IMG/VR virus record: IMGVR_UViG_2563366881_000002
Coordinates: 1-43,852 of that record
Length of the DNA: 43,852 nt
DNA from: a virus
Lineage: Duplodnaviria; Heunggongvirae; Uroviricota; Caudoviricetes
Reading direction: 5' to 3' (one strand)
Shown here: positions 3,966-16,658 of the stretch, in pieces
Layout: the number at the start of each line of letters is the position of its first letter
How positions within the stretch are numbered: the stretch's first letter is position 1
Notes under the pieces: model-generated
Databases searched by the model: none
The model's input: the letters and a program-made list of their open reading frames with translations, nothing else
Told to the model about the DNA's origin: nothing
Translations under genes and position numbers: made by a program

Positions 3966-4459
3966 TTTGCTGCTCCTCATCATATCGACCCTGCAAGGTC
4001 GGTTGGTTTCTCCACAAAACAGAGAAGAACACCTGCGGTGGCAGCCGCCCGGATGGATTGGGTTATGAGCCCGTCGTCCGGTGATGCTCTTCTCTGTTTT
4101 GCAAAAAAGGACGGTACCAGCCGGAAGCAAGGGTACAAACTGGTACCGCCAGGACTACACACAGCATAAAGTTGTGGTGCCGGGTGCCTCCCGGTGCCTG
4201 GCGAAGGTTGCACACCAGGCGGGTGGGTATCCACAGAAGGTCGACTGTCAGCCTCAACCTTAACCCGCGTGCGCTGAGCCGCATTCACCACAACGCTAAG
4301 GATTCTCTCTGGTTGAAAATACTTAGCTGTTATGTGCCTGCTTTTAGCCACATCAGGCGAGGTGGACCTGGTTATTCCCCAACAACAAGGATTCGGTTAA
4401 TCTGGATATCCCCAACAACAATAAGAGTATTCAATGTGATCGCTGAATTAACGGCAGCA

Positions 4460-4951
4460 ATGACGGCTATTCGTGAAACAGCCCAGATTGCAAAACTAAT
4501 GAACGAGGCAAAAACTCAAGCTGAAGTAAATGCGGCTATTGGTGAGCTGAACTCAAAGCTTGCGTCTATTCAGCGCGAATGCGTGTCTCTCGTTGAACTG
4601 GTGGGCTCTTATCAAGAAATAAATGCTTCTCTCAAAGCTAAAATTGCAGAATTCGAAAACTTTGAGGCTCAGACGGAAGGCTATATCCTTAACCAACTTG
4701 AGTCGGGTACTTTTGTATACTCGAAGGAGGTAATCGTGAACGGTGGCAGCATAACCATGCATCTTTGCCCAAAATGTTTTGGACAAAAGATAGTATCGAT
4801 ACTTCAACCATTCCCGGTTAGCGAAGATGAGCTTTTTCATAAAAGCAGGTGCCTCCACTGTGAAAATAAGTTTCTGATGAATAAAAATCCGGATTACGTA
4901 TCGCCTCCATCCATTGAGGAGTTGTCCAGAAAACTTAACGGCAATCTGTAG
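4460..4951 (+). CDS. hypothetical coiled-coil protein with C-terminal C4 zinc ribbon (AT-rich cargo gene)
   Basis: 163 aa from ATG 4460 (alternative GTG 4436); N-terminal heptad-like region, C-terminal CPKC...x34...CLHC; AT-rich codon usage unlike flanking genes; followed by intrinsic terminator. Confidence 0.5.
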   Translation: MTAIRETAQIAKLMNEAKTQAEVNAAIGELNSKLASIQRECVSLVELVGSYQEINASLKAKIAEFENFEAQTEGYILNQLESGTFVYSKEVIVNGGSITMHLCPKCFGQKIVSILQPFPVSEDELFHKSRCLHCENKFLMNKNPDYVSPPSIEELSRKLNGNL

Positions 4952-4984
4952 ATTACTACTGTTGTGGATATCCAGATTGTTAAA

Positions 4985-5016
4985 GAGCTAAGCGTCCTGT
5001 AGGGCGCTTTTTTGTT
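4985..5016 (+). terminator. rho-independent terminator downstream of zinc-ribbon ORF
   Basis: Stem AAGCG..CGCTT followed by TTTTTTGTTG. Confidence 0.4.
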
Positions 5017-5100
5017 GCTAACGAATCATCCGGTCATTCATACGCCACCGGCGGCTACTTCGTGGGCGTCCTGCCTGTCCGTGATAGCTTACATTATGTT

Positions 5101-5150
5101 GCTACTTAAAGTAGCAAAAATCAACAACAAAAAGTAGATATTTGTTGTTG
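5101..5150. promoter_or_regulatory. operator-like palindromes (candidate OL/pL region)
   Basis: Palindrome GCTACTT-A-AAGTAGC (5101-5115) shares half-site AAGTAG with the two repeats in the cI/cro intergenic region; second inverted repeat CAACAACAAA..TTTGTTGTTG (5122-5150). Confidence 0.4.
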
Positions 5151-5335
5151 TCTATGATTTTTCTATAATTAATTGAAAGTTAAATGTTTTTGCTGATTTA
5201 CTATGCTGTAAACTGAAAATATCGCACGAAGTTGGAGTAGGTATTGAGCATAGTGAATTATGAGGAGGGAGTTTTTTATGAGATTAATCAGGGAGAAAGA
5301 AGAGTAAAGCCCGGTTATGCGGCCGGGCACATGCA

Positions 5336-6412
5336 TTACTTTGTAAGTTCTAGAACTCGTTGAGCCAGCCCTTTAAATTGTTCGTTAAAGGCGTCTCTGC
5401 TTGATTTCATTGTATTTAAGGCATGCCCAAATTGCCCTGAATCGCGAATTTGCTGATCACTGATGGAGAAAACAGGTGTCGCTAGTTGTTGGCTTATTGC
5501 GATTAATGAGTTGAAATCGGAAATATGCGCAAGATCATAGGCTGATAAATCTCCACTGACTGTTGTTTTGTTAATTGCATGTTGCACTTTATCTCGTGGA
5601 ATTATGCAGGTAATTTTTTCTAGATTTGGCACTAAGATCGAATCAACAGCATCACGGATAGCTGCCATCCATTTTTCGAAAGATTTTACAGGTGCTCCTT
5701 TACGCGGCCTGTATCTCTGCTGAATCATACCTAGAAACTGCGGTGCATTTTTAATTGATTGTGAAGAGTTACCATCATTATTTTCTTTAAATAATGCTAA
5801 TTCTTTGTGCCAGCGAGGTATATTTTTTGAGAGAGAGCGAATTGCTTGCCAGCAAAAAAAGTCTGGAGCTACAGGTACGATAAAATAGTCACTTGACATG
5901 AGAACTACTTCATTTAAACCTCCAACATTAGGGCTGAGATCATAAAGAATGTAATCAATATTATTCTTCATGGCGATTAGCTGTAATATTTTTGGCAGGT
6001 TCCCTGGTATATTTCTTGTAGCAGGAATACCAGCAGCAATTTTTAGAGAAACACTTATCTGTGAATCTAAGTCCGAAACATCTAAATGTCCGGGAAGAAG
6101 CAGAAGGTTTTCATGCAGTGTAGGGTGTAATTTTCCCGTTTCTTTTTCAAGGTATGCTTCAGGTTGTCCGCCATTAATCAAATATTCTACAATAGGTCCA
6201 AGAGTTAAGTTATCTCTGCTAGAATAAAAAGAATCTAAACCCTCATCAATCTTTTCATAGCCAAGAACCATTCCTGTTAGATTACATTGCGAATCAAGGT
6301 CAACCATCAATACTTTCTTGCCTTCATCCGCAAGTGCCCATCCAAGATTGAAGGTTGTTGTGGTTTTACTTACCCCACCTTTATGATTAAAAAAACAAAT
6401 TGATTTTGTCAT
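5336..6412 (-). CDS. ParA/MinD-family P-loop ATPase with extended C-terminal region (358 aa), rex-position cargo
   Basis: Deviant Walker A ..NHKGGVSKTTTTFNLG.. and ParA-type motif ..VLMVDLDSQCN..; SD AGGA upstream; AT-rich; sits immediately downstream of cI on same strand with own AT-rich upstream region. Confidence 0.8.
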   Translation of the reverse strand: MTKSICFFNHKGGVSKTTTTFNLGWALADEGKKVLMVDLDSQCNLTGMVLGYEKIDEGLDSFYSSRDNLTLGPIVEYLINGGQPEAYLEKETGKLHPTLHENLLLLPGHLDVSDLDSQISVSLKIAAGIPATRNIPGNLPKILQLIAMKNNIDYILYDLSPNVGGLNEVVLMSSDYFIVPVAPDFFCWQAIRSLSKNIPRWHKELALFKENNDGNSSQSIKNAPQFLGMIQQRYRPRKGAPVKSFEKWMAAIRDAVDSILVPNLEKITCIIPRDKVQHAINKTTVSGDLSAYDLAHISDFNSLIAISQQLATPVFSISDQQIRDSGQFGHALNTMKSSRDAFNEQFKGLAQRVLELTK

Positions 6413-6582
6413 ATTTCTCTATCCTTTCGACCCCCAGCATATTGTAATTTACGCTGGGTGATTATTTTATATTGTTAATGATAATGTTTAATAAAAATAA
6501 GAGAGTAAAACAACTATTAGTAATAGCACTTGCTTGATAAATATTATTTTTTCACCTTTAGTTCTATAGTCTAAACGAAGAA

Positions 6583-7344
6583 CTAAAGCCGGTTGTATTT
6601 AATTGATTCGTGTATCAATGCTTTGCCCATAACATAAAGTTGATCTTGGGACTTCTCATCAATGTACCATTTCTCATAGGCTGGATTATCCGAAAGAACG
6701 GCGAGTTTGTTGCCTTGCATTTGTAGACGTTTAACGTGGAACGTCTTACCATAAACGAAAGAGTAAACACCATCAGTTTGGAAGTTGCGAACAGAAATGT
6801 CGACAAACAGTCGATCTCCGGAAACTAGAGTAGGGGACATGCTGTCGCCATTTACAGTCATAACTTTAATATCATCTTGAGAACGATTACCGAAAAGAGA
6901 ACGGGCATGCTCTGTTGTGAACTCAATGGCGTAGAGCACATCAACATAGTCTGAAAGCATATAGGTTCCAGGTCCTGCGCTAACGCTAAGATCCAAAACT
7001 TCTATCCTGTATACATCGGGTTTTGTTGGATTGGGGATGCTTGCCATTTCCTTACATCCTTCTCTCTCGCCAACACCATATTCTAAATATGAAGCTGATA
7101 CCCCCAGAGCCAATGCAAGTTTATTCATGACAGAGGCACGAGGCTTCGCAGCGCCGATTGTGTATCGCCGCGCCATTTCATATGTAACGCCCACAAGACT
7201 TTTGAGTTGGGTGACAGAAATTCCCTTGTTTGTCATTAGCTCGTTTAGTCTCTTGGCGAAATCTGGATACTTCTGTTCTTCTACCATAGGTAGAAGGTTA
7301 CTCGCATCACATACGCTAGTCATTTCTATTTTAAGTAGTTGCAT
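6583..7344 (-). CDS. cI: CI-like prophage repressor (N-terminal HTH_XRE, C-terminal S24 LexA-like peptidase domain)
   Basis: HTH (..ISVTQLKSLVGVTYEMARRY..), S24 catalytic Ser in ..NGDSMSPT.. and Lys in ..HVKRLQ..; divergent from cro-like gene. True start may be internal (ATG at 7323 or 7287); no SD at any candidate, so possibly leaderless. Confidence 0.85.
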   Translation of the reverse strand: MQLLKIEMTSVCDASNLLPMVEEQKYPDFAKRLNELMTNKGISVTQLKSLVGVTYEMARRYTIGAAKPRASVMNKLALALGVSASYLEYGVGEREGCKEMASIPNPTKPDVYRIEVLDLSVSAGPGTYMLSDYVDVLYAIEFTTEHARSLFGNRSQDDIKVMTVNGDSMSPTLVSGDRLFVDISVRNFQTDGVYSFVYGKTFHVKRLQMQGNKLAVLSDNPAYEKWYIDEKSQDQLYVMGKALIHESIKYNRL

Positions 7345-7361
7345 TCTGCTATTTTAAGTAG
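7326..7361. promoter_or_regulatory. OR-type operators: two direct copies of CTATTTTAAGTAG in cI/cro divergent promoter region
   Basis: Identical 13-mers at 7326-7338 and 7349-7361 (23-bp centre spacing), each an imperfect palindrome CTAyTT-N-AAGTAG; same motif at 5102-5114. Confidence 0.5.
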
Positions 7362-7393
7362 CATCATCCCTCTGAATTTCAGAGGAGAAAGGT

Positions 7394-7657
7394 ATGTCAT
7401 CTCAAAACTACACAGAGAAAGCAGTAAAAGCTGCGGGAAAATCTTTATCTGAAGTAGCCCGTCACTTTGGTTTTAAGTCCACTCAATCCGTCGCTAATTG
7501 GGTAATTAACAATCAAGTCCCGTCAGAACGGGTTTTACAACTTTGTGAGTTGGGAAACTGGTCCGTGACCCCTCATGAACTGCGTCCTGATATTTACCCC
7601 AATCCAAATGATGGATTACCTGAGTGCTATTCAAAAGTTAGCGGTTCAGCTGCGTAA
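7394..7657 (+). CDS. Cro-like / YdaS-family HTH regulator
   Basis: 87-aa ORF with SD GAGGAG; divergent from repressor; HTH-like segment ..LSEVARHFGFKSTQSVANWV.. Confidence 0.7.
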   Translation: MSSQNYTEKAVKAAGKSLSEVARHFGFKSTQSVANWVINNQVPSERVLQLCELGNWSVTPHELRPDIYPNPNDGLPECYSKVSGSAA

Positions 7658-7685
7658 ACGTAACCACAGAAACGAGGAGTTAACC

Positions 7686-8243
7686 GTGGGTAAGCATCAC
7701 TGGAAAATAGAAAAACAGCCTGAGTGGTACGTGAAAGCTGTCAGAAAAACTATCGCAGCGTTGCCGGGGGGGTACGCTGAAGCTGCTGACTGGCTGGACG
7801 TAACAGAGAACGCATTATTTAACCGCCTTCGTGCCGATGGCGATCAGATTTTCCCGCTGGGATGGGCAATGGTTTTACAGCGTGCTGGTGGCACTCACTT
7901 CATTGCTGATGCTGTGGCGCAGTCTGCAAATGGCGTATTTGTGTCTCTTCCTGACGTCGAGGATGTGGACAACGCCGATATTAACCAGCGTCTGCTGGAA
8001 GTCATTGAACAGATCGGCAGTTATTCAAAACAGATTCGTTCAGCAATCGAAGACGGTGTAGTGGAACCGCATGAGAAGACAGCAATTAACGACGAGCTGT
8101 ACCTCTCAATTTCGAAGCTGCAGGAGCATGCAGCACTGGTCTACAAAATCTTTTGTGTTTCAGAAAGTAATGACGCCCGCGAGTGTGCAGCTCCGGGCGT
8201 CGTGGCGTCGATTGCTTCTGGTTGTGGAGAAACTAACGCATGA
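7686..8243 (+). CDS. YdaT-like regulatory protein (CII-position)
   Basis: GTG start with SD GAGGAG 7 nt upstream, directly after cro-like gene; 185 aa. Family assignment from recall of ydaS/ydaT pairs in lambdoid prophages. Confidence 0.5.
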
Positions 8244-8587: not shown

Positions 8588-9529
8588 ATGAGCACTAAAT
8601 TAACCGGCTATGTATGGGATGGTTGCGCTGCATCAGGCATGAAATTATCCAGCGTGGCAATTATGGCCCGCCTGGCTGATTTCAGTAATGACGAAGGTGT
8701 GTGCTGGCCATCAATTGAAACCATTGCCCGCCAGATTGGCGCGGGGATGAGTACCGTCAGAACGGCTATCGCACGGCTGGAAGCAGAAGGCTGGTTAACG
8801 CGTAGGGCGCGTCGCCAGGGTAACCGCAATGCGTCGAATGTTTATCAGCTTAACGTTGCGAAGCTTCAGGCAGCGGCATTTTCTCAACTGTCAGATTCTG
8901 ACCCGTCAAAATCTGACGCATCAAAATCTGACCCGTCAAAATTTGATGCGTCGAAATCTGGCAAAAAAGCGGGTTTTCACCCGTCAGAATCTGGTGGGGA
9001 TCCGTCAGTAAAATCAAAACATGATCCGTCAGATAAAAAAACTTCTCGTCCGGACGCTTCGCAACCGGACACGCAGACGGCTGAACAGGATTTTTTAACT
9101 CGCCATCCTGATGCGGTTGTATTCAGCCCTAAAAAGCGCCAGTGGGGGACGCAGGATGATTTGACCTGCGCACAGTGGCTCTGGAAAAAAATCATCGCCC
9201 TGTACGAGCATGCCGCCGAATGTGACGGCGAGGTGGTTCGTCCCAAAGAACCGAACTGGACAGCATGGGCAAACGAAATTCGCCTGATGTGTGTGCAGGA
9301 TGGTCGTACTCATAAACAAATCTGCGAGATGTACAGCCGCGTCAGTCGCGATCCGTTCTGGTGCCGTAACGTGCTCAGCCCGTCGAAGCTGCGGGAAAAA
9401 TGGGATGAGCTTTCCCTGCGCTTATCGCCGTCCGTCAGCACGTACACCGAAAAACGCGAAGACCCGTACTTCAAAGCCAGTTACGACAACGTGGACTACA
9501 GCCAGATCCCGGCAGGATTCAGGGGGTGA
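8588..9529 (+). CDS. replication initiation protein (lambda O-like; N-terminal HTH, internal iteron origin)
   Basis: N-terminal winged-helix (..SIETIARQIGAGMSTVRTAIARLEAEGWL..); tandem 15-bp repeats inside the gene encode an SDxSK linker, as in lambda O/ori. Confidence 0.7.
   Translation: MSTKLTGYVWDGCAASGMKLSSVAIMARLADFSNDEGVCWPSIETIARQIGAGMSTVRTAIARLEAEGWLTRRARRQGNRNASNVYQLNVAKLQAAAFSQLSDSDPSKSDASKSDPSKFDASKSGKKAGFHPSESGGDPSVKSKHDPSDKKTSRPDASQPDTQTAEQDFLTRHPDAVVFSPKKRQWGTQDDLTCAQWLWKKIIALYEHAAECDGEVVRPKEPNWTAWANEIRLMCVQDGRTHKQICEMYSRVSRDPFWCRNVLSPSKLREKWDELSLRLSPSVSTYTEKREDPYFKASYDNVDYSQIPAGFRG
8893..9038. repeat. iterons (candidate origin of replication) inside initiator gene
   Basis: At least five tandem ~15-bp units ACCCGTCAAAATCTG / ACGCATCAAAATCTG / ... 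plus degenerate copies and flanking A-tracts. Confidence 0.6.
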
Positions 9530-15910: not shown

Positions 15911-16201
15911 ACAACGAATCCTTCTGATCTGCTTTTGCGGGGCTTTTTTGTATCCGCTCCATGCCCGGCGTATAAGCGGAGGTTGGTCAGTTTTCTAAAA
16001 ATTGAAATACCTCACAATTCAGCCAGTTAATGGTTGTTTGTCTGGCGAAGAGTTTGTAAATAAAAAAACGCATGGTGAATCCCCCTAAGCGGCGGGGCGA
16101 ATCAGCAGTCAGTTCTGGGATAATCGCGGGTTCGTATGCTGATGCCGGACTCACCGGGAGGCACCCGGCACCATGCATCATGGTCATCCCCTTGTATGAT
16201 A

Positions 16202-16226
16202 CCCCTCTCCGGAGGGGTATTTTTTG
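16202..16226 (+). terminator. rho-independent terminator
   Basis: CCCCTC-TCCG-GAGGGG hairpin followed by TATTTTTT. Confidence 0.55.
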
Positions 16227-16658
16227 GATAAAAAAGCCCGCGCTGGGAGGCACGGGCGGCAAGGAATAAAACGTGAAGAAATTTTCACAGGCGCATAATA
16301 ATCCGATGTTGCCAGATTTTGCAACTGCATCATCTGGTTATTATGTGAGCTGGAAAATCAGATTCTGTATGGACTGAAGCCATGCTGTTATTTAGGGCCA
16401 AAGAGCTGGCTTTTTCCCGCCTTCTCTCCAGTAACGATTAATGAGAAAAGAATGAAATGCTTTTCCTGGGGAGGAGGGCAGTAGAAAAAAGAACCCGCCA
16501 GCAAAAATATGGGGGATGAACAGCTTTTGCTACTCAGGTTGCTGGCGGGTATGGTTCTTCATGAAATAAGAATGTTACGCGGTATTTTTAATGAAAATGA
16601 TAATTATTGTCAATTGGTTGTGCGTATTTTTTCATACATGACTGGTAAAGGTGATTCA

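Follow-up and report, generated by a model that had tools for sequence, protein, structure and literature searches.

A lone ParA-like ATPase in the immunity region of a lambdoid Escherichia coli prophage is a candidate anti-phage defence protein

Directly behind its repressor gene, a lambdoid prophage of Escherichia coli carries an orphan gene for an ATPase of the ParA/MinD superfamily, and we lean towards reading the product as an anti-phage defence protein that is expressed in the lysogen. The prophage is IMG/VR record IMGVR_UViG_2563366881_000002, all 43,852 nucleotides of which were analysed (the window); it encodes a tyrosine integrase and sits at tRNA-Arg. The gene, at 5336 to 6412 on the minus strand, encodes a protein of 358 residues, WP_000167381.1. 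That it is a conflict-related moron is argued by its position, by the interchange of a validated defence gene with it in the same slot, and by the recurrence of its relatives behind unrelated repressors. Presence in a defence island, the pairing of distant members with HEPN proteins, spread across phyla and purifying selection argue for the same interpretation.

The cI-type repressor gene (6583 to 7344, minus strand) lies upstream of the ATPase gene on the same strand. Its product has HTH_3 and Peptidase_S24 domains by Pfam and PHROG and is named 'XRE family transcriptional regulator' by the NCBI Prokaryotic Genome Annotation Pipeline (PGAP). A 170-bp AT-rich spacer (6413 to 6582, minus strand), analysed by composition and by promoter and terminator scans, separates the cI stop from the ATPase gene; its G+C content is 27%. 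Divergent from cI, a Cro-like regulator of the YdaS family (7394 to 7657, plus strand) marks the right edge of the immunity module. Between cI and cro, the right operators at 7324 to 7363 consist of a perfect palindrome (7347 to 7363) and a degenerate copy (7324 to 7340), and repeat and pattern searches found the cI/cro operator again as the perfect 17-bp palindrome TGCTACTTAAAGTAGCA at 5100 to 5116. Across the window the perfect 17-bp palindrome TGCTAYTTWAAGTAGCA is confined to 5100 to 5116 and 7347 to 7363, and the operator pattern has five matches against 0.25 expected by chance. From these sequences we read the palindromes at 7347 to 7363 and 5100 to 5116 as the right operator (OR) and left operator (OL), respectively. 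Since they bracket cI and the ATPase gene together, the latter lies between cI and the left operator, in the position of rexAB. An original prediction, made from the sequence of the window alone, had placed the gene directly 3' of a cI-like repressor, on its strand and in the rex position; both statements hold, and the positional argument built on them is right and extends to other prophages.

Transcription signals were predicted from the sequence. A consensus scan found a terminator-like GC hairpin, GCCCGG-N8-CCGGGC with a T-rich tail, at 5309 to 5328 on the minus strand, 8 bp past the ATPase stop codon, and this is the predicted close of the cI-side transcription unit ahead of the left operator. 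The same scan of the spacer found no intrinsic terminator between cI and the ATPase gene. One promoter-like site is predicted in the spacer, at 6490 to 6461, and a TATAAT/TAAAAT sequence resembling a -10 element lies about 30 to 45 nucleotides before the ATPase start and recurs at homologous loci. We infer that the gene, as a prophage moron of the immunity region, would be transcribed in the lysogen, with transcripts that run on from the cI promoter or start at a promoter of its own in the spacer. Two hairpins also lie in the spacer on the minus strand, one at about 6556 to 6588 that spans the cI stop and has no U-tract, and one at 6431 to 6460 (CCCAGC-N14-GCUGGG) just 5' of the ribosome-binding site of the ATPase gene. 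A structured RNA or terminator in the spacer was considered and rejected: Rfam gave no match in it, the z-score of folding reaches only -2.3, and neither hairpin is kept at homologous loci.

What occupies this slot in other prophages bears directly on function. In the Gifsy-1 immunity region of Salmonella Typhimurium 4/74 it is GiPD474, a 361-residue AAA_31/ParA-like protein with GGVGKT at residues 29 to 34, which is encoded beside a cII/cro/repressor module, is highly transcribed in the lysogen and, expressed alone, makes T4 and Alf5 plate about 5 logs less well and also restricts FO1 (Bosma, Noireaux & Bowden, Applied and Environmental Microbiology 2025, PMC12724215). A lone ParA-like ATPase in the slot as a defence gene is therefore a finding already published, in late 2025. 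The same slot in sister E. coli prophages, which match the window at 92% identity in the cI region, holds a 361-residue ParA-like protein with GGVGKT at residues 29 to 34, in a 90% cluster that takes in S. Typhimurium sequences; from its length and P-loop position we assign it, indirectly, to the GiPD474 type. Such a gene is present in 71 complete E. coli genomes and the window type in 109. Two E. coli loci (L018:3314-4399 and L024:3180-4265) show the GiPD474-type gene in the slot behind a near-identical cI, and in two others (L022:3790-4489 and L023:3790-4489) the slot holds two overlapping small open reading frames (ORFs), of 114 residues (with a weak CpXC zinc-ribbon match) and 125 residues.

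GiPD474 and the window ATPase have much in common. Both are single-gene ParA/AAA_31 ATPases of about 360 residues, encoded as AT-rich cargo directly 3' of a prophage repressor; the window gene, too, stands alone beside a repressor/cro/cII module. Both families occupy the identical slot behind a 92%-identical cI in E. coli and occur in Gifsy-type immunity regions in Salmonella, and for both the closest solved structure by sequence is PDB 3pg5 (DIP2308 of Corynebacterium diphtheriae, from structural genomics), which has about 25% identity to the window ATPase. They differ in the P-loop, KGGVGKT in GiPD474 and KGGVSKTT in the window ATPase, and in the conserved motifs outside the ATPase core. Identity between the window ATPase and the E. 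coli GiPD474 type is 23% by BLASTP and 20% in a profile-profile comparison, and the full-length hhalign comparison of the two families gives an E value of 9e-18 over 302 columns. The identity lies far below the threshold that the GiPD474 authors set for homologues (identity and coverage of at least 70% each, relative to WP_000368620.1), so the window ATPase is not a member of their family. A Salmonella protein, P0010, that is 73% identical to the window ATPase was considered as GiPD474 itself and rejected on length and on the position and sequence of its P-loop. On these sequence comparisons the window and GiPD474 types are best described as alternative ParA-superfamily cargos of one slot and are not demonstrably sister families. 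The original prediction had recognised no described defence family of this architecture; that is now outdated, as GiPD474 is a protein of the same kind in the same slot, and it stands only in so far as GiPD474 belongs to a different family. The measured phage phenotype is that of GiPD474, and a defence role for the window ATPase is a prediction.

Other known cargos follow the same logic. Lambda RexAB, BstA of P22-like phages and Gifsy remAIN share with the window ATPase a place bounded on one side by the repressor gene and on the other by the left operator or the early-left genes; rexAB in lambda and bstA in BTP1 lie between cI and OL (BstA paper). All of these cargos are present in the lysogen and variable among otherwise similar phages. 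The window ATPase has no sequence or domain similarity to any of them. It is a single soluble protein, without a RexB-like membrane component and without the pairing of a RexA sensor with RexB, and it has neither the KilA-N nor the DNA-binding domain of BstA.

Relatives of the window ATPase recur behind repressors of several kinds. In the P22-like phages ST160 and SE1 the gene order is c2, DUF3024, ParA, gp24; in Salmonella Gifsy-like prophages a relative lies directly 3' of a 155-residue CI_repr repressor; in a Pseudomonas capeferrum prophage it follows an S24 repressor, and in an Acinetobacter prophage an Arc-family repressor. Among the 11 closest IMG/VR clusters, the upstream same-strand gene encodes a repressor in seven. 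Elsewhere, Megalodesulfovibrio has a homologue of 63% identity in a P4-like integrative island, with HicAB, DarTG and a type I restriction-modification system coming after it, a Mannheimia relative lies in a small ParE-bearing island, and some phages carry relatives after the lysis genes. The close relative PhiR49_1 is without the gene. Homologues in filamentous Pseudomonas prophages (30-31% identity) are encoded at the regulatory end and run divergently from the structural genes; in the Pf1-type filamentous prophage AY324828 the full-length homologue Orf317 (L002:4079-5032) is annotated as 'putative regulatory protein', and the Pseudomonas phage WX-TY has a similar arrangement.

The family is large and broadly distributed. 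More than 5,000 homologues were found, with full-length proteins of about 357 residues at 60-65% identity across Proteobacteria, and relatives are encoded on 145 viral stretches in IMG/VR. Sampling one genome per species added Helicobacter, Akkermansia, Veillonella, cyanobacteria, Firmicutes, Bacteroidota and Planctomycetota, as well as metagenome-assembled genomes (MAGs) of a member of the candidate phyla radiation (CPR; Parcubacteria) and of Nitrososphaera. A single allele (at least 99% identity) is present in 109 of 5,426 complete E. coli genomes (about 2%), in 110 copies, and all 109 genomes have the full cI-ParA stretch at an identity of at least 99%. Between the window gene and a 95%-identical allele, nonsynonymous differences (pN) are 0.03 and synonymous differences (pS) 0.75, and this comparison indicates that purifying selection on the gene is very strong. 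Two E. coli genomes have a broken cassette: an IS3-family insertion sequence lies at the 3' end of the ATPase gene in NZ_CP058223.1 (H66), and IS1A lies inside the cI-ParA cassette in NZ_CP130667.1 (H81), which suggests occasional inactivation.

The protein itself conforms to the superfamily. The 358-residue ORF was recovered by an ORF check, and the gene is AT-rich, with a G+C content of 0.377 overall and 0.276 at third codon positions (0.271 in the spacer) against 0.516 for the whole window. Pfam AAA_31 covers residues 3 to 204 with an E value of 2e-29, CbiA matches at 5e-14, ParA and MinD-type families match more weakly, and PHROG 164 ('ParA-like partition protein') covers residues 1 to 356. 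In an alignment of 35 family members, the deviant Walker A motif NHKGGVSKTT (signature lysine K11, P-loop lysine K16), switch I VDLDSQ (D38 and D40, in VDLDSQCN) and Walker B YDLSP (D158) are invariant, and mean column identity is 63% overall, the C-terminal third included. The original prediction had rightly singled out the ORF, its base composition and the first two of these motifs. Thus the diagnostic features of the ParA/MinD superfamily are all found, namely KGGxxK[ST] with the signature lysine, the switch I aspartates and the Walker B aspartate, and, judged from the sequence, so are all residues for an ATP sandwich dimer. The family's own signature motifs are FNHKGGVSKTT, DLDSQCNLTG, IPATRNIPGNLP, QQRYRPR and DFNSLIAISQ. 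We rejected the NCBIfam partition and MinD equivalogs as identities, since they match the N terminus only (about the first 50 residues) and far below their curated cut-offs.

The C-terminal half is where the protein departs from Soj in sequence. Profile comparison of the family with Bacillus subtilis Soj (hhalign, with a Soj sequence entered by hand) aligns residues 1 to 202 with an E value of 4e-21 and leaves residues from about 203 to 358 unaligned. The AlphaFold model (predicted local distance difference test score 81, predicted template modelling score 0.86) has the ParA/MinD three-dimensional fold, and its core strands go on at 225 to 234 and 293 to 299. Because they do, the model points to a ParA fold that is whole, in which about 100 residues are internal insertions and the C-terminal half has diverged in sequence, rather than to a core with an appended domain. 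The roughly 150 extra C-terminal residues that had been taken for an extension were therefore misread; the core persists past residue 204 and the extra residues are insertions in it. Searched alone against the whole library, residues 203 to 358 match 146 cluster representatives at an E value of 0.001 or less, and the full-length matches are nearly all proteins of about 320 to 380 residues aligned within their C-terminal part.

Clustering of neighbouring ORFs at 160 loci found no conserved partner for the window ATPase's own clade and one recurrent partner elsewhere in the family. At 21 of the 160 loci a protein of about 200 residues is encoded on the same strand, 0 to 25 bp downstream, and it is a HEPN domain protein (Pfam HEPN_RiboL-PSP, E value down to 6e-14) with the motif RRNKIAHE. 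These two-gene modules (L172:6001-7648, L153:6001-7642, L157:6001-7654, L104:5001-6671, L177:6001-7633 and 16 more) occur in cyanobacteria, Chitinophaga, KSB1, CPR and an archaeal MAG, and they are absent from PADLOC. The HEPN-paired ATPases are all 35-39% identical to the window ATPase over residues 1 to 357 (for the L172 dyad, 39% over residues 1 to 356 with an E value of 3e-81) and have in common with it the motifs FNHKGGVSKTT, YRPRKG and DFNxLIA, which makes them true members of the family. The adjacent HEPN (Rx4-6H) gene sets the dyads apart from the window: it is missing beside the window ATPase and all relatives of at least 40% identity, and a hidden Markov model built from 20 partner proteins, run against the window translated in six frames, found no HEPN partner (best E value 0.049). 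Anantharaman et al. (2013, PMC3710099) described ParA/Soj-HEPN dyads as predicted toxin-antitoxin or conflict modules and postulated that the ATPase is the antitoxin. Our dyads are probably those of that prediction, with the equivalence of their HEPN partner to the MAE_18760 family conjectural.

These dyads suggest an alternative, namely that the window ATPase is an orphan antitoxin, anti-addiction or anti-defence factor. The dyad ATPase may restrain its HEPN RNase, and a solo copy kept by a prophage could then neutralise toxins of the HEPN type, or effectors of abortive infection, belonging to the host or to competing elements, and would not attack phages itself. The tight coupling of a HEPN gene at 21 of 160 loci, the postulated antitoxin role of the dyad ATPase (PMC3710099) and the full-length homology (39%) of a window ATPase that has no HEPN partner in the window are all in line with it. 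Anti-defence genes, however, are usually expressed early in the lytic cycle and not from the immunity region, and the slot otherwise houses cargo that protects the host (GiPD474, remAIN, BstA, RexAB). Moreover, that the dyad ATPase is an antitoxin is itself only a prediction, and the match to the MAE_18760 dyad is conjectural. We consider this explanation unlikely.

A conventional ParABS partition role is not supported: ParB and parS are both lacking, and all E. coli copies lie on chromosomes. Over 27.4 kb the window has 99.5% identity to a PGAP-annotated tRNA-Arg prophage of E. coli CFS3273, in which no ParB is annotated. At other family loci, 36 same-strand downstream neighbours are heterogeneous and include no ParB-type family. 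Past the stop codon of the ATPase gene come the terminator and then the operator, and a repeat search of 4900 to 7700 found no repeat arrays, centromere-like or other, besides the cI operators; tandem arrays in the window are confined to iteron-like repeats within the replication gene and three arrays among the late genes. Nor is the gene on an autonomously replicating low-copy replicon: its element is an integrated prophage, and 110 of 110 E. coli copies are chromosomal. Partner, centromere and replicon are thus all lacking. The original prediction had reported neither a ParB partner nor centromere repeats and had called a partition role unexpected for a phage that integrates by a tyrosine integrase; the CFS3273 annotation, the repeat searches, the tRNA-Arg insertion and the chromosomal copies bear this out. 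From the canonical partition ATPases (Soj/ParA of type Ib, McdA and pNOB8 ParA) the window ATPase differs in its roughly 100 inserted residues, in a C-terminal half beyond the reach of sequence alignment, in having no ParB or adaptor gene and no centromere, and in residing in a chromosomally integrated prophage.

A looser role in positioning or partition of the phage genome, or in control of lysogeny, would have the repressor or another phage DNA-binding protein serve as adaptor and the ATPase stabilise an excised or episomal form or modulate induction. The fold and motifs of the window ATPase, which are nearest those of DNA-binding ParA, Soj and McdA, would suit such a role, as would the repeated adjacency to repressor genes, the old annotations of homologues as 'regulatory protein' and the 31%-identical homologue at the regulatory end of a Pf1-type prophage. 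Against it, neither the prophage nor the 36 downstream neighbours examined provide a ParB-like gene, and centromere-like repeats are lacking. The neighbouring repressors come from families unrelated to one another, and this speaks against a specific partnership between proteins; the gene is missing or replaced by other cargo in PhiR49_1 and further sister prophages, and it is also found away from any repressor. We rate this role as improbable as that of an orphan antitoxin. Least probable is a MinD/FlhG/BcsQ-like switch by which a host-modulating moron alters division-site placement, motility or exopolysaccharide secretion to the benefit of the lysogen: those names reflect Walker-A-level similarity far below curated cut-offs, no MinD-type C-terminal membrane-targeting helix was seen on reading the sequence by eye, and spread across phyla on mobile elements together with HEPN pairing misfits a host-specific pathway.

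Several observations weigh against a defence role and temper our preference for it. No effector domain is recognisable in the window ATPase and the arrest of a phage by a lone ATPase is unexplained; this is the chief gap, and it leaves space for the rival explanations. The literature searched, which did not reach to Brenes & Laub 2025 (ECOR prophage defences), contains no functional test of the family. A PADLOC run on the ATPase and its neighbours, as advised with the original prediction, matched no model of any named defence system, RexAB included; the sole match was to candidate PDC-M28B, in which we do not place the ATPase, the match being at Walker-A level over 38 residues (3 to 40). The similarity to GiPD474 sits in the ATPase core, as N-terminal halves compared by hhalign give an E value of 3e-17 and C-terminal halves a non-significant 0.05, and the core is at least as near Soj (4e-21) as GiPD474. 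Testing the halves separately in this way also led us to reject the C-terminal half as a module specific to the two families. Many family members lie in surroundings without defence genes, and should the HEPN dyads use the ATPase as their antitoxin, a solo copy would not have to be a defence effector.

If the window ATPase is nonetheless a defence protein, we propose that it would act as a nucleotide-dependent switch. The ATP-bound dimer may attach to a surface, DNA or the nucleoid being the likeliest, by way of the basic patch in the invariant QQRYRPR motif. This patch lies where we take B. subtilis Soj to have its DNA-binding arginine, in a region that hhalign leaves unaligned. After entry of phage DNA the dimer would then engage a phage-specific component, and either replication or maturation of the invader would be blocked or abortive infection triggered, so that the lysogen would be protected from heterologous phages. 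A more speculative proposal, which we hold to be doubtful, concerns the history of the family: deep-branching members would control a HEPN RNase, and the proteobacterial prophage form would have shed the RNase and become a self-sufficient immune protein, its ATP-bound dimer coating or mis-positioning incoming phage DNA on the nucleoid or hijacking a partition-like or replication-like factor of the phage and thereby stopping infection, in parallel to GiPD474. Such a defence would need no enzymatic effector and would work by the way DNA is organised in space, in place of cleavage, depletion of NAD+ or ATP, or harm to the membrane.

Three other features of the window deserve mention. Convergent to the ATPase gene, between OL and the early-left genes yfdP to yfdT, a gene at 4436 to 4951 on the plus strand encodes 171 residues (PHROG 1244, function not assigned) with an N-terminal coiled coil and a C-terminal CxxC...CxxC pattern, and it has its own strong terminator at 4990 to 5009. 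Since it is also present in PhiR49_1, which is without the ATPase gene, it is an independent moron candidate. Downstream of the region of the antitermination (Q-like) gene, 16041 to 16229 on the plus strand match the gammaproteobacterial small RNA family STnc100 of Rfam at 114.5 bits (gathering threshold 47). Within the O-like replication gene, 4.3 copies of a 15-bp unit (TCTGACCCGTCAAAA) at 8897 to 8960 form the only array near the early region; these repeats are probably iteron-like and part of the phage origin, and unrelated to the ATPase gene.

Beyond the single prophage, the family of the window ATPase is different from GiPD474, far more widespread, absent from PADLOC and linked to HEPN proteins. 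Should our reading be true, ParA-like ATPases in prophage immunity slots would form a recurrent class of single-gene defences, beyond the sole example of 2025, and the window family would carry that class through Proteobacteria, Campylobacterota, Cyanobacteria, Firmicutes and Bacteroidota to an archaeal MAG. Such a family would be systematically misfiled, because defence finders miss it and pipelines label it 'partition protein'. The solo and HEPN-coupled forms offer a natural comparison, which may reveal by what means infection is sensed by a ParA switch and whether an effector is needed. As about 2% of complete E. coli genomes have the gene and Gifsy-type prophages of Salmonella commonly carry it, it may affect the host ranges of phages used in therapy and biocontrol.

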